A stretch of DNA of 64,000 nucleotides from Acidobacteriota bacterium (GTDB taxonomy: Bacteria; Acidobacteriota; CAIWXX01), in contig JBFMAF010000010.1 of assembly GCA_040755995.1 (NCBI GenBank), forward strand, positions 64,001-128,000, read 5' to 3'. The translations under genes and the position numbers were made by a program. Under the pieces are notes generated by a model. The model made no database searches, was not told where the DNA came from, and saw only the letters and a list, made by a program, of their open reading frames with translations. Shown here in pieces: positions 48,170 through 59,730 of this stretch; the stretch's first letter is position 1, and every line of letters starts with the position of its first letter.

Positions 48170-49069
48170 TCACCTTCCAAAGCGAAATGCGGTGAATTGT
48201 GCGTTCATGCGGCTCCCTTGTCCATTGGTGAACTGAGTCATGCACGAGTCATCGGTGTAGTCCATGAAGTTGTGGATCGGGTCCCGGCCGCGGCTCGGGC
48301 AGGTATTGCGCCGTTTGGGGCAGCCGAATGCAGGGGATTTCTCAGCCGGCGTGTCCGAGACGTAGTCGCCTTTGCCTCGGCACCCACCTTGGAACGTGTG
48401 ATATAGACCCATCCAGTGGCCCACCTCGTGTGTGCCGGTGTCGCCGAGATTGTACGGCGCAGCAGTGCCGCCGGGCAGAGAGGAGTACAAGAGAACGACT
48501 CCATCCATCGTCGGGTTCCCGCCGTAGCTCGACGGAAACGTGGCCCACCCGAGAAGATCCTGTTTGAGAGACGCCGTGTAGATGTTCAGGTCGTCGGCAG
48601 AGCCCTGCCGGAGCGCGGCCTTCGCGCTCGCCTCCTCAGGAGTCCCCATCCCCATGTTGAACCACGTGGGGTTCGTTTGACGGTCGATCGTGACCAGGTT
48701 GAAGATCCATCCGTATGGCCCGTACGCGGCGTTCAAGACCGCGATCTGAGCCAGAACCTGGCTATCCGGGACATCGCCGTTCGGGATGCCGGGGCCCTTG
48801 CTGATCACGTGGAAATAGACGTCGACGACTCCTCCCAGCTGCGCGTCTGCGATATCCAGACCCATCTCCCTCAGCACCTCGGCCGCCAGTGCTTCGTCAC
48901 GCGTGATTCTCGCCGGGTCAATGTACGTTCCGCAGCGGCGCCACCCGGTCCCGGCGAGCTCGCCGGTGGTTTCGTCAGCCTCGGCGTATCCCAAAGTGCC
49001 CGGCACGGCCGCCAGAGCACATGCAACCCCAATCGTCAGCGTAGCCATCCGAATACTTCGTCCGGTCAT
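48170..49069 (-). CDS. Secreted pappalysin/ulilysin-family (M43) zinc metalloprotease
   Basis: Cys-switch RRCGT, HEVGHWMGLYHTF, NFMDYTDD. Confidence 0.9.
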   Translation of the reverse strand: MTGRSIRMATLTIGVACALAAVPGTLGYAEADETTGELAGTGWRRCGTYIDPARITRDEALAAEVLREMGLDIADAQLGGVVDVYFHVISKGPGIPNGDVPDSQVLAQIAVLNAAYGPYGWIFNLVTIDRQTNPTWFNMGMGTPEEASAKAALRQGSADDLNIYTASLKQDLLGWATFPSSYGGNPTMDGVVLLYSSLPGGTAAPYNLGDTGTHEVGHWMGLYHTFQGGCRGKGDYVSDTPAEKSPAFGCPKRRNTCPSRGRDPIHNFMDYTDDSCMTQFTNGQGSRMNAQFTAFRFGR

Positions 49070-49238
49070 CTATCCCTCCACTCTCTATCCGACCACATGG
49101 TGCAAACATCACTCACGATAGCCCCTGCGACTATGATACTCGCTATCGATTCCGTAGTGAAGAGGATCGGCTCGCTTTTCTTGGGCCGGCTGGGTTTCAG
49201 AATCGGTGGGGGGCTCAGGGCGCGGAGGCGGTGAAGCC

Positions 49239-49580
49239 TCACAGATCGAGGACAAGTCTCAAACCGTCCTCAACGCTTTGGAGCAGACGGACAGGCAGCT
49301 TTCCGACACATTCTGTGAGAAACCGTTGGTCGACCGTGAGCACTTGGGACACGTTCGCCACAGAGTCACTTGGTAGATCTGTTTGTGCGCTCGGCAGGAG
49401 GACATTACCAGGGGCGTCTGCGTGCTTGAGGTTCGTAGTGATGGCAACCACGACCACGGTTCCAATCTTGCTGCGGTTGAAGGACTCGGCTTGCACGACG
49501 AGGACCGGTCTACGATGACCGGGGCCAGAGCCCGCAGGTTCCGGCAGAGATGCCCACCAGATCTCCCCGCGGTGGATCAC
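49239..49580 (-). CDS. mazF: MazF/PemK-family endoribonuclease toxin
   Basis: RGEIWWASL..P.GS..GHRRPVLVVQ...FNRS...VAITTN. Confidence 0.92.
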   Translation of the reverse strand: MIHRGEIWWASLPEPAGSGPGHRRPVLVVQAESFNRSKIGTVVVVAITTNLKHADAPGNVLLPSAQTDLPSDSVANVSQVLTVDQRFLTECVGKLPVRLLQSVEDGLRLVLDL

Positions 49581-49816
49581 CGATTGCCCGCCCGTGCGAT
49601 GGTCAGATTCTGAAGCTCAGCTAGGACGGGATCGACGCTCGATGGCTCGATCCCGTACACGCGGTCCAGGGCCTCCGTGATACGCTCGCTGCTGCGCGCC
49701 CTCACGAATTCATTGAGCGCGTCTGCATAGAGCTTGCTGCGCGAAATGTGCATCCGCCTCGCCAGACCTTCCGCGGCCTTGAAAAGCGGAGTCGGTATGG
49801 AAACTGCTGTCTTCAC
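49577..49816 (-). CDS. RHH antitoxin cognate to MazF
   Basis: MKTAVSIP..LF..AE..A...ISRSKLY..AL; overlaps the mazF start. Confidence 0.85.
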   Translation of the reverse strand: MKTAVSIPTPLFKAAEGLARRMHISRSKLYADALNEFVRARSSERITEALDRVYGIEPSSVDPVLAELQNLTIARAGNR

Positions 49817-49822
49817 GGCCAG

Positions 49823-49852
49823 AGTATAACCCGAGTTATACCAGAATGTCAA
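49823..49852 (-). promoter_or_regulatory. TA promoter with palindromic operator
   Basis: TTGACA-N18-TATACT overlapping the inverted repeat GTATAAC-ccga-GTTATAC (49824-49841). Confidence 0.7.
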
Positions 49853-49909
49853 GCCGCACACTCCGGCCGTCCGACCGCGGCAGCCGCGCGAACCTGCTCG
49901 CCCGGGCGG

Positions 49910-52484: not shown

Positions 52485-53393
52485 TCATCGCTGTGCGGCC
52501 CCGTCGCAGCCCCCGTTGATGATCCTGTGATGCTCGATCGCCTGCTCATCGGACGACGTGGCATCCGCCGGTGCGGATGCGCCAGCAGCGGAGGTCCAGG
52601 TCGCTTGCCACGTGCCGGACTGATACAGGTACCCGCACGGGTAGATGTATAGGCCCGTGTACGCATAGGTTCCCGTGGCTGTGGTGGCCGAGGTGAACTG
52701 CCCGGTGAAGCTGAATGTGCTGCCGGTGAAGCTAAACGAGCCGCCGCTGATGCTGCCTGGGCCCGGCACCGTGGTCTCCGTCCATCCCCAGCAGGACCCG
52801 AAGTTGAAATCGGTCTTCAGCGTGAAGGTCGAGTATTGCGTCCCGCCCGAGAGCACTAGAAAGGACATCGGCTGCGAACGGCTGGTCGTGCCGGTCCAGG
52901 TTCCGGCCGTCGGCACTATGCCCCCACCCGAGCAGTAGATACTCCAGGTGAACGAGGACCACGAAGCCTTCATCTTGTACTTCCTCGGGCCCCACTGCGT
53001 TGTGCCACATGCATCGACCGCGTAGAACGTGTACCTCCGTCCAGCCTCCAGACGCAGCCGCCTCACCGTGTAGGTACCTGGTCCAGTTGCATACCCCTTG
53101 TACTTCCCATCAATGTAAAGCAGCACCTTTCCCCCACAAACGCAGTTCCAATTCAAGATCTTCCAATAGAACTTGATGGAGTTCGCGTCCTGGGGAGACG
53201 TCGCCATCGAATCCTCGCCGCCGACCAATTGCAGCTCCTCGCCGCCAGCCTCCAACCCTCGCACGGCGATCGCTGATTCCAGGGCTTCGCCCGGTACGAG
53301 ATCGTTTCCTCGAGTAGCCGCCGGAGCGGCGGCGCAGACTGCCGCAAGTCCCATGACGAACGCGGCGACTATGAATGCCATTCTCGACCTCAT
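52485..53393 (-). CDS. Secreted hypothetical beta-rich protein
   Basis: AAAGGAGG RBS, signal peptide MRSRMAFIVAAFVMGLAAVCAA; Cys/Trp/Thr-rich two-part mature region. Confidence 0.7.
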   Translation of the reverse strand: MRSRMAFIVAAFVMGLAAVCAAAPAATRGNDLVPGEALESAIAVRGLEAGGEELQLVGGEDSMATSPQDANSIKFYWKILNWNCVCGGKVLLYIDGKYKGYATGPGTYTVRRLRLEAGRRYTFYAVDACGTTQWGPRKYKMKASWSSFTWSIYCSGGGIVPTAGTWTGTTSRSQPMSFLVLSGGTQYSTFTLKTDFNFGSCWGWTETTVPGPGSISGGSFSFTGSTFSFTGQFTSATTATGTYAYTGLYIYPCGYLYQSGTWQATWTSAAGASAPADATSSDEQAIEHHRIINGGCDGAAQR

Positions 53394-53511
53394 CGAATCC
53401 TCCTTTCGGGCAACCCACATCTGGACCGTCGACTTCCAACGGGGCAGTCCCACTGAACCTTCAGGTTGGTTTATTACCGTAATCCCATGTCGCGGGGCTG
53501 TTGGCACCGTA

Positions 53512-54282
53512 CTACCTGCCGCAAACGTTGTCAAACGATGCCTTGGTCCCGCTGCCGGAGACAATAAGCCAGACTGTGTCCTGGTCCGGAACAGTGCTGG
53601 TTGTCCCAGAGATCTTGTAGACCTCTTTCCCATTGATTCGCAGCGCAACTCTGTTCGACGCGTAGACAATCCCGATCTTCGTTACGGCCCCGTAGTTCTT
53701 GGCTCCGGCGACGCACCAGCTGTAGCTGTTCCAGTCATAGAAGAGCATGCCGGCGCGCCCGTCTCTCATGAGCACTCCGCCGAACCCATCAATTCTGTAG
53801 CTTCCGATCTGGAACACAGGGCCTTCGTCGTTGAACGGCTGGAAGCCCATCCAGTTGTTATTGACCTTTTTCGCCATGTTCATTTCGAGGGTGAAGAACT
53901 TGCCCGGGTTGAACGTGTGAGCGATGCGGCCGAGGTAGCTCCCGCTGGTGCTGGTCAGCTCCAGCCGCCCTCCCACCATCTTCCTGGATGCATAGCTGGT
54001 TGTCCAGCCCGGCAGCGCTGGCGCGCTGAAGGTCTCAGAGAGCCATGAGCAGCCGGCGGGGTAGGCCGGCTCGGCGAATGGAGCGTCCAACGCCGGTTCG
54101 CCGATCATGACCAGCTCGTCATGTGCCTCGATTGCCGCCAGCATGACCTGCCGGGCATCCGCCAGCGAACCCTTCCTGGGCCAGTGCCGATCGCGCGAGT
54201 GAATGTTTCCGGGCGCAATGACCAAGATTGCTCCGAGCGAAAGCACGATCGAACCCGTTAACAATAGCCTTGTCGACCACAT
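53512..54282 (-). CDS. Secreted hypothetical protein with a ConA/DUF1080-like beta-sandwich
   Basis: AAAGGAGG RBS, signal peptide MWSTRLLLTGSIVLSLGAILVIA; C-terminal LRINGKEV...ASFDNV. Confidence 0.7.
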   Translation of the reverse strand: MWSTRLLLTGSIVLSLGAILVIAPGNIHSRDRHWPRKGSLADARQVMLAAIEAHDELVMIGEPALDAPFAEPAYPAGCSWLSETFSAPALPGWTTSYASRKMVGGRLELTSTSGSYLGRIAHTFNPGKFFTLEMNMAKKVNNNWMGFQPFNDEGPVFQIGSYRIDGFGGVLMRDGRAGMLFYDWNSYSWCVAGAKNYGAVTKIGIVYASNRVALRINGKEVYKISGTTSTVPDQDTVWLIVSGSGTKASFDNVCGR

Positions 54283-54419
54283 AACGAACCTCCTTTGTTT
54301 GAAAGACGAGTCCAATACATCCGTTCCGGTGTGGACCAGTTGCTCGGCCTCCGGACGATTCCCTATGGTCCGATGCCCCGGCCCACTTTTCATTCCATTT
54401 ACTCCCTGGTTCATTCAGT

Positions 54420-54446
54420 AGTGGGATCTCGACAGAAACATTTCAT
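54420..54446 (-). promoter_or_regulatory. Putative ECF promoter, copy upstream of the secreted genes
   Basis: ATGAAATG-tttctgtcgag-ATCCCACT. Confidence 0.65.
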
Positions 54447-54554
54447 GCCCGGGCGGCATTCGGGTTTCCACAGTCCATTCCGATCGAAGCCAAAGGTGCA
54501 ATGGAAGGGCCGCGACGGCGCGAGGGGAACAGACAGCGAGCCGTCTGGATGCAG

Positions 54555-55511
54555 CTACTGAAGTTGTATCGAGAAGGAGTAGTCGGCTATGCCCTCGAAT
54601 GTGCCGTCGGCAGCCGGTGCACTTACCGTGAGAATGTAGTCACCGGTCTTCAGGGCCGCAGCGGGGATCATGACGGACAGGACTGGCTCCGCGGGAGTCG
54701 CGGCCAGGCGTACCTCCTGGCTCCAGACGCTCGTGCCCTCGGGCGTGGACACAGTCGTGCGATACGAGCTCGTTTCGAGGGCTGGCTCGACCTCGACCCG
54801 TGCCTGAACAAACTGTGTCTCACGATGAACAACGAGCTTCTGCGCTCCGGCTCCGCGCACCAGGGGGACGAGATCGACGCTCACGAATTGAGGCGGTGCC
54901 GCGGCCGGGCCGCCGGCGACGGGGCCCGGGGCAGGAGCATTCTCACCGCTCGGTGACCGCACTTCGCCGGATCCGCCGCCTCTCAGGAGCCCTGCGATCC
55001 TCCGTTCCAGCATACGCTCGTTCTGTTCAGCCCTTTCCTTCTCCGCCACCATGCTCTGATAGCGCACTTCAGCTCGATGATATTCGAAAGCGAGCCATAC
55101 ACAGAGGAGCACCATTCCCGTCGCGAATGACAGCTGAACAACCGGGGTCTGGAGGCGGAGCAGCGCTACAAAGGCCCGCAATATCGATGACAGCCGGGAC
55201 TCAGATGCCGGTTCCCGCGCCGGTCTTTCCGCCTGCGCGGCAGCCCAATCAATCAGAGATCTTGCGAAGCGCACTCTCTCCATTCGCGCCGGCGTCGTGA
55301 GGAAGTTCTTCTCGAACAACACCTTCTTGTCCGCCGTAAGCTCATCTTTCACGTATTGGTCGATGAGCTCGTCCTCGACGACGCTGATCCGCTCGAACAG
55401 CGCATCATCGGTCATGTAGCGCTTTTCGAGCTCGATCTCTTCATCCGCCGGCAGACTCCTGAGGAGGTAGTCAACGATGAGTTCGTCTTCCATTCTGCTC
55501 GTCCGGCTCAT
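54555..55511 (-). CDS. Putative membrane-spanning anti-sigma factor
   Basis: N-terminal helical repeat DYLLRSL..EE..LE..Y / DQYV.DEL..DK..LFE..F, one TM, coiled coil, Gly/Pro linker, Ig-like C-terminus (GDYILTV...YSFSI); directly after the ECF gene. Confidence 0.7.
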   Translation of the reverse strand: MSRTSRMEDELIVDYLLRSLPADEEIELEKRYMTDDALFERISVVEDELIDQYVKDELTADKKVLFEKNFLTTPARMERVRFARSLIDWAAAQAERPAREPASESRLSSILRAFVALLRLQTPVVQLSFATGMVLLCVWLAFEYHRAEVRYQSMVAEKERAEQNERMLERRIAGLLRGGGSGEVRSPSGENAPAPGPVAGGPAAAPPQFVSVDLVPLVRGAGAQKLVVHRETQFVQARVEVEPALETSSYRTTVSTPEGTSVWSQEVRLAATPAEPVLSVMIPAAALKTGDYILTVSAPAADGTFEGIADYSFSIQLQ

Positions 55512-55527
55512 AAGGCTCCCTTATTCC

Positions 55528-55554
55528 AGTGGGATACTCCCCGAATCATTTCAT
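55528..55554 (-). promoter_or_regulatory. Putative ECF promoter, copy upstream of the anti-sigma, overlapping the sigma stop codon
   Basis: ATGAAATG-attcggggagt-ATCCCACT. Confidence 0.65.
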
Positions 55555-56154
55555 CAGTGCTTCAATGCACGCCCGGATCTCTTCCTTGATCCGGAGTATC
55601 CGAAGTCTCAGTGCATTGATCGAGACGCCCAACCGGCGGGCGAGCTCGTTTCTGGCCTCGATCTTGGCGCGCCCTCTGTCGCCGTAATAAGCGATGACCA
55701 GGTCGCGCTCCTGCTGAGCCAGTCGGCCCATGCACTCGTTCAGAGACTCGATCCTTTGTTCCTTGCTGAGTCTCTCCGCCTCCTCCGCCTCCTGCTCGAC
55801 CGGGTTGACCGCAGGTTCCACCAGACAGCCCGCGCCTCCGGTCTTCGCCGTGGCGTCCCAGTACTCGTGCAGCACGTTTCTGGCTACGCCAAGGAAGTAG
55901 GTCGCAGGCTGATCGGCCATGATGACAAGGCCGTCGTTCAGCCTGGCTGCCACACGGAAGAACACTTCGTCGGCCAGGTCGGCGGCACTTGGGCAGCCCT
56001 TCCACTCGAGAAACCGGATCAGCTTCCTGCGAATAAGCAGGTACTGCTCGCCGGCGCGATCCGGGTCCGGATGGAGCTGCGACATCAAGAGGCGCAGCGA
56101 GTCTGCGGTGAGAGCCCTCGCTCGCTTCCGCGGCTCCGAGGCCTCACCCGTCAT
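55546..56154 (-). CDS. ECF (sigma-70 group 4) sigma factor
   Basis: Region 2 AADLADEVF...YFLGVARNVLHE; region 4 CMGRL..QERDLVIAYY...ELARRLGVSINALRLRILRIK. Confidence 0.85.
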   Translation of the reverse strand: MTGEASEPRKRARALTADSLRLLMSQLHPDPDRAGEQYLLIRRKLIRFLEWKGCPSAADLADEVFFRVAARLNDGLVIMADQPATYFLGVARNVLHEYWDATAKTGGAGCLVEPAVNPVEQEAEEAERLSKEQRIESLNECMGRLAQQERDLVIAYYGDRGRAKIEARNELARRLGVSINALRLRILRIKEEIRACIEALMK

Positions 56155-56262
56155 GGTTGTCCGCGGCCCGGCCTACAGGCGTCGAGCCGGCAGTGCTATA
56201 CAGCGCGTCATGCACTACGCCGACTCGTTGAAGTCCTTGCGGACTTATGACCCGCTGTACAG

Positions 56263-59200
56263 TCAATTCCAGTCGCCCTGGAGCACGAACGCGGCCCAGT
56301 AGAACGGCTGGGACCATCGCGGGCTCTTCAGCATCCCGATCTGAGCGGCGCGGAGGGCCGCCGCTGGAGGCAGGCGCCGCGTGCCCAGCATGGCGTCGTA
56401 GAAGCGGTTCATGAGCTCCGCGGTCGCGGTATCCTCCACCTTCCACAGACTCGCCAGTACACGTTTCGATCCCGCATACATGAAGCCTCTGGTAAGGCCC
56501 ACAAGACCCTCTCCCTTGATCTCCTTGCCGAGCGCCGTCTGGCAGGCGCTCAGCACGACGAGGTCCGCCGCGAGCCTCATGTTGTAAATGTCATAGAGCT
56601 TGAGGAATCCGTCCTGAGGGCCGCCCTTCGGATCGACGAGTGAAAGGAGGACGCCCGACAGCTCAGGGGTGACATTGTCGAGGATCCCGTGCGTCGCGAA
56701 GTGCACAATTCTATATTGGGAGATTTCGTCGCTCATGGCGGTCCCCCTGCTGGCATCGAAGTCCATAGCCAGCTTCCGGAGGGCGGCGGGTACTGAACGA
56801 GTGATGGACTGAGCTTCTCGGCGGGTAAAAGGGAGTCGTGGAATCGCGACCGAGCCCTGCCCCAGGCCAATATCGCGCACCGCGCGTCCGACGCCGAAGG
56901 GGGACACAGGCGTCTCAACGTTGCCGGTGGATGCTGATGCCCCCACGCGAGGATCACCGCGCTCGAACACGGGATCGGCGAACACCGCTACCGTCTTCGA
57001 CGCCGGCTTCCGATCGCCCACTTCTCGTCTCAGCTCGGCCAAGGCGGATGCTGAGGGAAGGTTCAGCACTTCGCATCGGGCGACGAGCGGTTCATACGCC
57101 TGGCGCGGCCCTGCGCCCTCGGATGGCGGCAGGGGCAGAGCGGCGAATGGCACGTACTGCAGCGCTCCGTCAGCGACTACCAGCAGCCGTCTGGGGCTCA
57201 GCTTCGCCAGTGGGCCAAGGATCATCTGGCTCAGGCTGACGGCAGCGGTGCGAAAGTCCAAATCCGCTCGTTCGATGCGCGCGCGCCTCGCCGTCAAGCT
57301 CTCGCCGTCGACTTGCCGATTGCGTTCATTCAGCAGACGATAGACGTCGCGAGCCGAGGCCTCGATCTCCGCGCGTCCCGGCAGCCTGTAGGAATCCAGT
57401 CGATCGGGCCCGACGACCCAGCAGTAGCTTTCCTCATCGCCCAGCGCGTATTCCAGGAGGAACGCGCCTTCCCCGGTGATTTCTTCTTGAATCTGCCCGA
57501 CTCCGAGGGGCGCGGGCTGCGTCAGGGCAGCGTAATGAGGGCTCTTCTCGCGTATCTCCGCCTCAACCTGCTGGTACTCATGCGTGAGTGATGCGATCTC
57601 GCTCGCAAGGGCGGCGGCCTGCGCCGGCGTGTGTTTTCCGCTGAGGAGGCGTATCTGGCGTTCGGCCTTGGCACTCAGCCGCTCCCTCAGAGACCTCTCC
57701 TTCTGCAGGAGCGCTTCATCGACGCCCGCGCGTATGTCGATGCTGCCCTCGGCAAGCATCTCCAGGAGGCTCCGCGCTCGAGCGCGCTCGCTGGCCTCCA
57801 GTGCCTCCCGCTCATGTCCCTCCTCGGTCTTCTGCCGATTCATCTCCATGAGTAGTCGTATATAGAACTCGTAGTATCGCTGGGCCGTGGCGAAGTAGGA
57901 CGCGCGGAGCTTCTCCGTTGCCAGTCCTGCCCGGATTGACTCGACGATATCGAGGGCGGCCTCGATATCGCGGCGCGCTTCGGATAGCTTGCCGGCGGTG
58001 AACTCCAGCTCGGCGAGTCCCCAAAGCGTCTCAGCCTCGCCGCCCCGGTCGGCGACGTCGCGTCGCACGGACAGAGCACCGTTCAGATATTCTGTGGACT
58101 CCTGGACATGGCCGACGGACTTCTCGGCCATGCCCATGTTGTGGAGGGTTGCGGCCTCTCCAAACTTGTCCCCGGTTTGAATCCGCAGCGGGAGTGCCTG
58201 GTTGTAATACTCCATCGCCTTCTGCGGCTGGTCCGCCTTCGCATAGGCGCTTCCGATGTTGTGCAGAACGTTCGCCTCTTCCGACCGGTCCTGCACGGAC
58301 CTGGCTAGCGACAAGGCCTTATCGTAGTAACCCAGCGCTTCCTGCGTGTCTCCCAGACTCACCCGAACGGCTCCCATGTTGTTCATGACTACGGCCTGGC
58401 CCCCACGATTCCCTGCCGCCTCCCAGAGCGCCTGGGACCGCTTGTAGTAGCTCAGCGCCGTCTCAGTCTCTCCGACTGAGTTGTACAGATCGCCGACGTT
58501 GTTCAGGACTGATGCTTCAGTGTCCTTGTCGCCGACGTCCCTAAGTAGACCGAGAGCCGCGTTGTAATCATCGAGCGCCGCCTGTATCTCGTCCAATGAT
58601 GACAATGCGGCGCCGATGTTCGACAGCGTTATGGCCTCGCCCCTCTTGTCGTTCAGGGCACGGCGCAGGGGCAACGCCTGGTTATGATACTCGAGTGCCT
58701 TGCGCTTCTCGCCCAACGAATCATAGACCGCCGCGATATTGTTGAGCGTGATCACTTCACCCATGGCTTCCTTCGCTTCGCGGACGATGGCCAAGACCCG
58801 TGTGTAGCATTCGAGCGCCTTCGCGTTCTCGCTGACAGACCAGTAGACAAGGCCCAGGTTGTTGAGCGCCCCGGCCTCTCCCATCTTGTCCCCACGCGTC
58901 CTCAGTATCGCCACAGACCGATTCAGGCTCTCGATCGCCCGGTCTTTGTTCCCAAGTGCGTTATTGATCAGGCCGATATTGGCGAGCATCTCCGCTTCGC
59001 CCGCTTCGTCCTTCAATGCGCGAATGATGTCGATCGCCTTCGTGAAGTGGTCTAGTGAGCTCGGCATGTCGCCGCGGAGGTACGAGATCTCGCCCAGCTT
59101 GGAGAGTGTGAGCGCGCACTTCTGATCTTCGGCGGCTGCGCGGAAGTGCTTCAGGGCTCCGTCGTACTTTCCTGCCGCATTCCCGAGCGATTCAGCAGTC

Positions 59201-59730
59201 ATCCCTGCCTGCAACCGTTGCGCTTCTGCGAAATCCCGTTCTCCCGCGACCAGGTCACGATCTCGAGGTGAGGCCTTCCGGATCTCATCCAACCTCACTT
59301 CATAGCGTCCAGCCGATGCCGACGCGTCCGGAAGGCGAATCTCCAATCTGTAGACCCCTGGCAGGTCTACGATCATCGACAGCGCGGCTGTGCCCTCGAC
59401 TTCGCCGGCACGATCAGTCCGCGCCACGCTCGCGCCGTCCGGGGCGCGGACTTCGAGCTCGACGTCAACGCCGCGCCGATCGACAACAAGGCGCAGATAT
59501 TGACCCGCCGTCGCCCGGATCTCGTAGAAATGCGACTGTCCTCCACTGATCTCCCTTGCCACCGGCGTGCCGATCCCCAATTCGGTCGCTTCCACCGAAG
59601 GGCCCGGCGCTGCGGGACTTGTGTTGCTCGCGAACAGAGCATGCGAACCGCAACCCGGCGGCGAAGTGAGAATGCTCCCAAGTGAGAGCGCGGCCGTCAA
59701 GGCGAAATGGATGCCATTGCTTGTCTTCAT
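56263..59730 (-). CDS. Exported TPR-CHAT (caspase-like) protease with N-terminal PPC-like domain
   Basis: Signal-peptide-like N-terminus; about ten TPRs (EAxxLNNxGxxY); CHAT dyad HFATHG / VLSACQT; SLWKVED, FYWAAFVLQGDW. Confidence 0.92.
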   Translation of the reverse strand: MKTSNGIHFALTAALSLGSILTSPPGCGSHALFASNTSPAAPGPSVEATELGIGTPVAREISGGQSHFYEIRATAGQYLRLVVDRRGVDVELEVRAPDGASVARTDRAGEVEGTAALSMIVDLPGVYRLEIRLPDASASAGRYEVRLDEIRKASPRDRDLVAGERDFAEAQRLQAGMTAESLGNAAGKYDGALKHFRAAAEDQKCALTLSKLGEISYLRGDMPSSLDHFTKAIDIIRALKDEAGEAEMLANIGLINNALGNKDRAIESLNRSVAILRTRGDKMGEAGALNNLGLVYWSVSENAKALECYTRVLAIVREAKEAMGEVITLNNIAAVYDSLGEKRKALEYHNQALPLRRALNDKRGEAITLSNIGAALSSLDEIQAALDDYNAALGLLRDVGDKDTEASVLNNVGDLYNSVGETETALSYYKRSQALWEAAGNRGGQAVVMNNMGAVRVSLGDTQEALGYYDKALSLARSVQDRSEEANVLHNIGSAYAKADQPQKAMEYYNQALPLRIQTGDKFGEAATLHNMGMAEKSVGHVQESTEYLNGALSVRRDVADRGGEAETLWGLAELEFTAGKLSEARRDIEAALDIVESIRAGLATEKLRASYFATAQRYYEFYIRLLMEMNRQKTEEGHEREALEASERARARSLLEMLAEGSIDIRAGVDEALLQKERSLRERLSAKAERQIRLLSGKHTPAQAAALASEIASLTHEYQQVEAEIREKSPHYAALTQPAPLGVGQIQEEITGEGAFLLEYALGDEESYCWVVGPDRLDSYRLPGRAEIEASARDVYRLLNERNRQVDGESLTARRARIERADLDFRTAAVSLSQMILGPLAKLSPRRLLVVADGALQYVPFAALPLPPSEGAGPRQAYEPLVARCEVLNLPSASALAELRREVGDRKPASKTVAVFADPVFERGDPRVGASASTGNVETPVSPFGVGRAVRDIGLGQGSVAIPRLPFTRREAQSITRSVPAALRKLAMDFDASRGTAMSDEISQYRIVHFATHGILDNVTPELSGVLLSLVDPKGGPQDGFLKLYDIYNMRLAADLVVLSACQTALGKEIKGEGLVGLTRGFMYAGSKRVLASLWKVEDTATAELMNRFYDAMLGTRRLPPAAALRAAQIGMLKSPRWSQPFYWAAFVLQGDWN

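Follow-up and report, generated by a model that had tools for sequence, protein, structure and literature searches.

A Putative Split Protease–Anti-Sigma–Sigma Switch in Acidobacteriota, with an Exported TPR-CHAT Protein as Candidate Site-1 Protease

The stretch of DNA analysed here, referred to as the window, comprises 64,000 nucleotides (positions 64,001-128,000) of contig JBFMAF010000010.1 (C10) in the 7.7-Mb genome (G000) of an Acidobacteriota bacterium. Its region 52485-59730 is filled by five co-oriented genes, all on the minus strand and all real, as an earlier note on this DNA had described. Three of them encode an exported caspase-like protease of the TPR-CHAT type, a single-pass membrane protein that resembles anti-sigma factors, and a sigma factor of the extracytoplasmic function (ECF) type with a divergent sequence; judged from their sequences, they probably make up a switch of three genes, a common one in the phylum. 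We consider it reasonably likely that this switch works by regulated proteolysis, as a split counterpart of the DdvA-type switch, with the CHAT protease cutting the anti-sigma protein after Arg219 and the sigma factor being freed.

In the resting state, as gene order and domain type suggest, the ECF sigma factor would be bound to the helical cytoplasmic domain of the anti-sigma protein, and the exported TPR-CHAT protease would lie inactive in the periplasm. CHAT would be activated when the TPR superhelix binds a ligand, a peptide or protein being the likeliest candidate, and we propose that the TPR-CHAT protein is both sensor and site-1 protease. The conservation of Arg219 points to a cut after this residue, which would free the bulk of the immunoglobulin (Ig)-like domain from its first strand and from the membrane. 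By analogy with DdvA, RseP, the gene for which is present in the genome, and cytoplasmic proteases would complete the breakdown of the anti-sigma protein. The freed sigma factor would transcribe from promoters of the form GAAATnnT-N11-CCAC, one of which would re-make the anti-sigma protein as negative feedback, and the other would drive the genes of two secreted proteins, SEC1 and SEC2.

The linkage of the three genes was assessed in a sample of the phylum, in which 39/301 genomes held 84 matches to the sigma factor. In the 81 sigma loci examined (of 83 non-self matches), an anti-sigma gene was found within about 6.5 kb in 78/81 cases and a CHAT gene in 53/81, in two gene orders. When CHAT genes served as the seeds, and only loci with room on both sides were counted (27 contig-cut loci were set aside), both partners were present in 24/34 loci of Acidobacteriota, 0/15 of cyanobacteria and 2/3 other loci. 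The conserved linkage, which the earlier note had named as a check on its reading, was therefore found. The anti-sigma family itself is large, with 6,674 clusters at 50% identity (E<=1e-30) and up to seven copies per genome. A paralogous triad lies on contig C55 of the same genome; it is followed by its own, unrelated secreted gene, which it shares with a genome of the same family, G010 (L001:5904-6950; L042:4493-5380). Ser/Thr kinase genes recur near the triads in 12 loci, and a cluster containing clostripain-family (C11) peptidase genes does so in 11 (for instance, L085:10119-11969).

The split genes have fused relatives. In six loci (L054, L090, L095, L096, L098 and L115), the same anti-sigma N-terminal domain and transmembrane (TM) segment are joined to TPR-CHAT in one protein, and at least 120 full-length fused proteins were found. 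As CHAT follows the TM segment in these proteins, the fusion places it outside the cytoplasm. The profile of the fused form matches DdvA (E=5.9e-11), and zinc-free fused forms occur in records with Blastocatellia/Pyrinomonadaceae titles. In two loci of related genomes (L084 and L117), a gene of the fused type is split in two overlapping open reading frames (ORFs), by a frame break or as an assembly artefact.

The exported TPR-CHAT cysteine protease of the window (56263..59730, minus strand) has 1155 residues, counted from the ATG after GAGGGG, and matches Pfam CHAT (E=1e-69) and TPR entries. A signal peptide is followed by a PPC-like beta domain (residues ~58-146), a TPR superhelix (~159-601), a helical linker and the CHAT domain (~831-1153); the AlphaFold2 (AF2) model, with a predicted TM-score (pTM) of 0.76, contains a low-confidence beta domain, the TPR superhelix and the CHAT fold. 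The catalytic dyad proposed earlier from the words HFATHG and LSACQT was confirmed by family alignment as His1014 (56689..56691, minus strand) and Cys1063 (56542..56544, minus strand). Both residues are intact in 55/56 aligned CHAT rows, the remaining row being a fragment without the domain. Pfam, the dyad and Foldseek agree on a CHAT/separase-like clan CD fold with a His-Cys dyad, and the top Foldseek match of the model was DdvA (8rw5, E=1.5e-16), followed by separase and Csx29. The TPR part resembles the peptide-binding Rap/NprR and LGN solenoids, which is a generic helical match. Asp1100, tried as an S1-pocket residue by analogy with separase, was unsupported: this column holds Asp or Glu in 47/47 split CHATs and Ser in 8/8 CHATs of the fused type, which have an acidic residue one position before it.

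The putative Sec signal peptide of the protease (59638..59730, minus strand, about 31 residues, with a predicted cleavage site) was assigned by a permissive heuristic only and is moderate in the window protein (best 11-residue hydropathy 1.87). CHAT proteins of triads passed this heuristic in 36/43 and 28/29 cases, compared with 413/807 control long ORFs, as did 15/15 cyanobacterial relatives. The latter (loci L126-L195) have CHAT domains 50-58% identical to that of the window and belong to exported proteins without these sigma partners. The heuristic and the fusion behind the TM segment together predict that the protease resides outside the cytoplasm, in the same compartment as the anti-sigma ectodomain, as the earlier reading supposed. 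The PPC domain claimed along with export fared less well: its Pfam match is below threshold (E=0.097), and the predicted local distance difference test score (pLDDT) is mostly <50 in this part of the model. Moreover, PPC was missing in several triad CHATs when these were read by eye, and its proposed role as the ligand sensor therefore cannot hold for the family as a whole.

The anti-sigma-like protein (54555..55511, minus strand, 318 residues) was characterised by AF2 and fold searches. It consists of a helical cytoplasmic domain (~1-95), a single TM segment (124-142), a coiled coil with a Pro-rich linker, and an Ig-like beta-sandwich (209-317) with a mean pLDDT of 87, for which the fold searches returned a generic Ig-like sandwich. 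The one-TM topology with an extracytoplasmic Ig-like domain was thus read correctly from the outset. Pfam gave no match for this protein. Weak matches to zf-HC2 occurred in 30/52 of its relatives, and the zinc ligands are absent (HxxxCxxC in 0/151 anti-sigma sequences).

Arg219 (LVPLV-R-G; 54855..54857, minus strand), in the loop between Ig strands 1 and 2, is the most conserved periplasmic residue of the anti-sigma protein (56/61 sequences; 149/150 among profile-selected representatives). The residue that follows is G, D or S in 138/149. Arg219 is kept in 45/46 loci with CHAT versus 11/15 loci without it (Fisher p=0.011, among loci that are kin and not independent). In the fused proteins, which carry TPRs in place of the Ig domain, an Arg lies 37-45 residues past the TM segment in 120/120 cases, followed by Gly in 117. 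This near-invariance in the split and the fused forms, at a place where the linker of DdvA faces the active site, makes Arg219 a candidate for the P1 residue of the CHAT cut, as far as sequence conservation can suggest it. Separases, to which CHAT is structurally related, also cleave after Arg (PMC11506125; PMC4626109).

A comparison within the genome pointed in the same direction. Zinc-type anti-sigmas no more than about 1 kb from a CHAT gene carry xR[G/S] in 3/3 cases and those elsewhere in 1/10, in a set to which two of the three CHAT-adjacent cases were added by hand and in which two Pfam matches yielded no row. In these three proteins, the motif precedes three different ectodomains, Ig-like, Fn3-like or TPR; the adjoining CHAT genes lie at C27 (L002:10563-15934), C37 (L006:6681-9937) and C36:194099-199215, and the C27 locus includes a canonical ECF sigma factor. 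CHAT genes also adjoin genes of single-TM proteins of 630-700 residues (L199:168-2081, L189:3903-6011 and L172:4942-6852), in which a conserved unannotated N-terminal domain replaces the anti-sigma domain and (V/T)R(S/G) follows the TM segment. These are possibly another type of transducer cut by CHAT.

The closest characterised relative is DdvA-DdvS of Myxococcus xanthus, in which a membrane anti-sigma factor carries its own periplasmic TPR-CHAT; it is known from structures 8rot and 8rw5 in the PDB and described in the sections of PMC11506125 on which this account draws. According to these sections, L92 closes the TM segment of DdvA, and the loop that comes closest to the dyad spans V129-P140; site-1 cleavage by CHAT followed by RseP was proposed, and of these steps that of RseP was demonstrated. 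The same sections call the CHAT-driven site-1 step 'unprecedented', with no trigger at hand to test it, and report DdvA-like proteins from no other source than Myxococcota and a single Comamonas. The window triad shares with DdvA-DdvS a sigma factor of the ECF type, a single-pass anti-sigma and a TPR-CHAT with a His-Cys dyad that is predicted to be periplasmic, and the fused relatives share its domain order. The distance from the TM segment to the Arg (37-45 residues in the fused forms) corresponds to that from L92 to the V129-P140 loop. Unlike DdvA, which is a single polypeptide, the window protease is a separate exported protein, and it is the fused relatives that have the DdvA architecture. 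The anti-sigma of the window is zinc-free with an Ig-like ectodomain, whereas DdvA has a zinc-binding CHCC/HHCC domain; the sigma factor is of a divergent lineage, and there are no genes of the cyclic oligonucleotide-based antiphage signalling system (CBASS) or of clustered regularly interspaced short palindromic repeats (CRISPR) near the locus. By this analogy, the window triad may work like DdvA-DdvS without being a member of that system, as it is split, zinc-free, Ig-bearing and free of defence genes.

The earlier note had taken Csx29/Csx30 as its nearest model, and overlooked the fused architecture; DdvA-DdvS is closer and is the top structural match. In type III-E Craspase, as reported in the excerpted text of PMC10028731, Csx29 cuts the separate anti-sigma Csx30, which frees CASP-sigma to act on motifs of its own locus. 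A TPR-CHAT protein, a separate anti-sigma and an ECF-like sigma with own-locus motifs are common to both systems, with cleavage a prediction for the window, and residues 359-1154 of the window CHAT align with Csx29 at Z 27.4 (root-mean-square deviation 6.6, 564 aligned). However, Craspase is cytoplasmic, activated by Cas7-11 and RNA, has a soluble anti-sigma and cuts after Met or Leu (PMC10028731, same excerpts), whereas the window protease is predicted to be exported and its anti-sigma to lie in the membrane, with no linked cas genes. NF041236 reached only 17.9 bits versus a cut-off of 100. CRISPR arrays were absent from 40-64 kb of the window, the cas1 genes of the genome lie on other contigs and none on that of the window, and no Cas or CBASS-specific match occurred among 134 flanking proteins (132 of 150 selected flanking ORFs, SEC1 and SEC2); cas7-11 was not searched for genome-wide. 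The claim that no cas genes are involved was borne out in this scope.

Two further systems invite comparison. ECF54 sigma factors have conserved TPR-CHAT neighbours, and proteolytic control was proposed for them (parts of PMC7826278 and PMC8999054). As covered in that part of PMC7826278, they are 100% Actinobacteria, have no anti-sigma, neighbour subtilase and carboxypeptidase-regulatory genes, and use a GTATCAG/CTCC promoter. The window locus has an anti-sigma and a different motif, and these features set it apart from ECF54.

In the DegS-RseA-RseP-sigmaE pathway, a signal-activated site-1 protease and RseP release the sigma factor, which drives the resynthesis of its anti-sigma. All of these steps are proposed for the window switch as well. 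The two differ in the site-1 enzyme: DegS is a shared serine protease, while the window switch would use a cysteine protease of clan CD, encoded as a dedicated partner for each sigma paralogue. No description of the split triad was found in the literature searched, which did not cover subscription journals.

The divergent ECF-type sigma factor (55546..56154, minus strand) has 202 residues, which fits the ECF length of about 200. It matches TIGR02937 with E=1.9e-8 and 34.1 bits, under the cut-off of 42.9, and has no match to Pfam Sigma70_r2; a scan of named genomes with this single protein gave no confirmed relative. The family profile is clearer: 26/30 members match TIGR02937 at E<=1e-3, and 6/6 PDB matches of the profile are ECF sigmas. 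The assignment as an ECF sigma made earlier fits the family, and the window copy is a highly divergent member below the cut-offs. In a quick tree that is mostly unresolved, one clade was well supported (L063, L064, L073, L079, L082, L105, L106, L110, L119 and L120), and its readable sites have mostly a TCTTA-type -10 and not CCACT. The two types of clade make a natural specificity series.

A promoter-like motif (TGAAATG-N11-ATCCCACT) occurs twice in the region, with the same spacing. Motif A (55528..55553, minus strand) overlaps the stop codon of the sigma gene and points at the anti-sigma gene, and motif B (54420..54445, minus strand) precedes the secreted genes. No other site in the genome exactly fits a pattern that was built from these two; six further sites fit it with one mismatch. 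Word enumeration in 80 downstream regions of the family gave GAAA-N16-TCTT and GAAATGTTT above shuffles. A leave-one-family-out matrix, with slight leakage from a seed word taken from the whole set, scored at least 12 bits in 18/80 regions on the forward strand compared with 2 on the reverse; motif B reached 14.9 bits with a matrix trained without its own family, a score attained in 0/40 shuffles. The motif lies directly after the TGA stop in 12/45 sigmas but in only 1/347 other genes; the -35 box of the anti-sigma promoter often uses the sigma's own stop (TGAAAT...), and AA follows in 21/45 sigma TGA stops.

When sites were picked by their -35 half alone, the -10 halves matched within loci (90 versus 72+/-5, attained in 13/10,000 permutations, for 21 pairs that are partly kin), and the spacers of the same 21 pairs showed no within-locus agreement. 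Locus L041, the orthologous one, has five copies of the motif versus 0.36 expected; one of them, unused in building the pattern, immediately precedes the SEC2 orthologue at a distance of 3.4 kb. The CHAT gene has no copy upstream, which suits the role of a sensor better than that of an output. The scans did not yield a genome-wide regulon: the family matrix gave 15 sites of at least 15 bits, mostly without a clear gene behind them. Sigma-70 promoters and terminators were at chance level. On sequence grounds, we regard the motif as a putative bipartite ECF-type promoter that recurs across the family.

SEC1 (53512..54282, minus strand, 256 residues) and SEC2 (52485..53393, minus strand, 302 residues, beta-rich) each begin with a hydrophobic stretch, in agreement with the two signal-peptide proteins originally reported, and are putative outputs. 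SEC1 is a probable concanavalin A/LamG-like beta-sandwich; its structural look-alikes in the Atlas (TM 0.5-0.6), some named 3keto-disac_hyd or Laminin_G_3, are a lead only. SEC2 had no usable Atlas match; it has a 54% orthologue near a triad in G010 and partial paralogues elsewhere in the genome. A domain in common with SEC2 is found in small secreted proteins at G000:C41:84010-85322, C18:39716-40387 and C36:21925-23040, and the C41 pair has a loose copy of the motif about 270 nt upstream.

As the same motif stands before the anti-sigma and before the SEC genes and recurs in the family, SEC1 and SEC2 are probably members of the regulon, and the suggestion that the downstream secreted genes are outputs appears probable. 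Their sequences are lineage-specific: with a homologue of SEC2 in 1/81 loci and of SEC1 in 0/81, neither is a conserved part of the module. The outputs vary across loci among secreted proteins and lipoproteins. The gene after the module looked exported in 27/63 loci (11/19 motif-rich and 16/44 other), compared with 73/432 and 40/201 in controls; 17 loci gave no ORF.

Several observations weigh against cleavage by CHAT after Arg219. The loop that holds this residue is well ordered in the AF2 model, and the residue could be structural; in the linker of the fused proteins R145, R150 and Y156 are as invariant as the Arg. Profiles restricted to the N-terminal domain, TM segment and linker did not match DdvA, so the correspondence of the Arg with the DdvA loop is an analogy and not an alignment. 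In DdvA itself, dyad mutants behaved as the wild type and phage Mx4 triggered no cutting (PMC11506125, in the sections cited). No CHAT gene was present in the retrieved flanks of 28/81 sigma loci, and the nearest CHATs of cyanobacteria, although exported, have no such partners, so the CHAT subfamily has other jobs as well. A whole-region best-match test at the sigma/anti-sigma junction against the reverse strand, a comparison on which the partly palindromic nature of the motif bears, was not significant (38/78, p=0.25). Finally, kinship among the loci inflates all p-values.

These points leave room for other explanations, none of which we consider likely. The Arg loop could be a securin-like tether or pseudo-substrate through which the ectodomain inhibits CHAT; a signal would free both, CHAT would act on other periplasmic targets, and an ordinary site-1 protease would cut the anti-sigma. 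This unlikely scheme accounts equally well for the linkage, the fusion and the conservation of Arg. It can draw on separase, which is inhibited by securin (PMC11506125), on the recurrence of other proteases (clostripain-family and subtilase genes) near the triad, and on an Ig-fold cysteine-protease inhibitor among the weak fold matches (3m86, E=2e-3, rank 25). The last match, however, is at background level. A P1 Arg that is unmodified and precedes a small residue would look like a substrate and not like an inhibitor, and the Arg stands between the membrane and each of three unrelated ectodomains, so that a cut would take these off.

It is likewise improbable, in our estimate, that the sigma and anti-sigma are an ordinary pair beside which CHAT is merely co-located, maturing or degrading exported proteins such as the regulon outputs, with Arg219 being structural. 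The loci without a nearby CHAT, the retention of Arg in 11/15 of these, and the exported cyanobacterial relatives working without sigma partners would all fit. However, the loci devoid of CHAT may use another CHAT of their genome (there are 12 CHAT genes in that of the window), CHAT is fused to the anti-sigma in more than 100 proteins, the Arg motif follows CHAT adjacency across unrelated folds, and CHAT stays while the outputs vary.

A further proposal concerns the role only and is compatible with release of the sigma factor by CHAT: the switch would be an anti-phage envelope alarm, as proposed for DdvA, triggered by a periplasmic phage protein and with defensive outputs. DdvA does control CBASS and type III CRISPR genes (PMC11506125, in the sections cited), phage tail and neck proteins head the fold matches of the Ig domain (at a generic Z of ~8), and a MazEF-type pair lies 2.6 kb off. 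We nevertheless find this role quite unlikely here, as the flanking proteins held no Cas or CBASS-specific match and their 16 PADLOC matches were generic kinase, helicase, protease or AAA domains. Moreover, a variety of secreted proteins and lipoproteins make up the outputs, and in the part of Table S7 of PMC11506125 considered, DdvA homologues mostly lack flanking CBASS or CRISPR genes.

It is very improbable that the anti-sigma cuts itself where strand 1 of its beta-domain gives way to strand 2, as in RsgI, and that TPR-CHAT is only a lever which binds the ligand and draws the two halves away from each other. Arg219 does directly follow the first strand in the AF2 model, and RsgI reportedly undergoes autoproteolysis in its periplasmic domain, but Arg-Gly/Ser/Asp is not known as a self-cleaving dipeptide, the His-Cys dyad is strictly selected, and the Arg motif persists in fused proteins, which lack a beta-domain.

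Downstream of the module, past a malic enzyme gene, positions 48170-49861 of the window (2.6-4.3 kb away) encode a secreted M43 (pappalysin-like) metalloprotease and the toxin-antitoxin pair of MazEF/PemK type; no link between these genes and the triad was seen.

Beyond the split switch with CHAT as its site-1 protease, a wider reading can be offered tentatively. There may be a phylum-wide modular grammar, in which exported CHAT receptors read a juxtamembrane xR-G/S tag on unrelated membrane transducers, and each paralogue has its own sigma -10 and swappable secreted outputs. The TPR would be the ligand groove and CHAT the Arg-specific site-1 protease, and the transducers would include anti-sigmas of the Ig, Fn3-like and TPR types, the fused DdvA-like forms and the TM proteins of 600-700 residues. 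If this were true, CHAT proteases would represent a general class of receptors in the bacterial envelope, and the likely type of scissile bond would be indicated for DdvA as well.

The present analysis adds a candidate scissile residue, a promoter motif and the size of the family. The split version allows the protease (C1063A) and the substrate (R219A) to be mutated apart, with the predicted promoter as a reporter. If the proposed switch holds, it would give bacterial separase-like proteases a function outside CRISPR. As the sigma and the anti-sigma of the window both fall under Pfam cut-offs, Acidobacteriota may have a major signalling route that escapes annotation.

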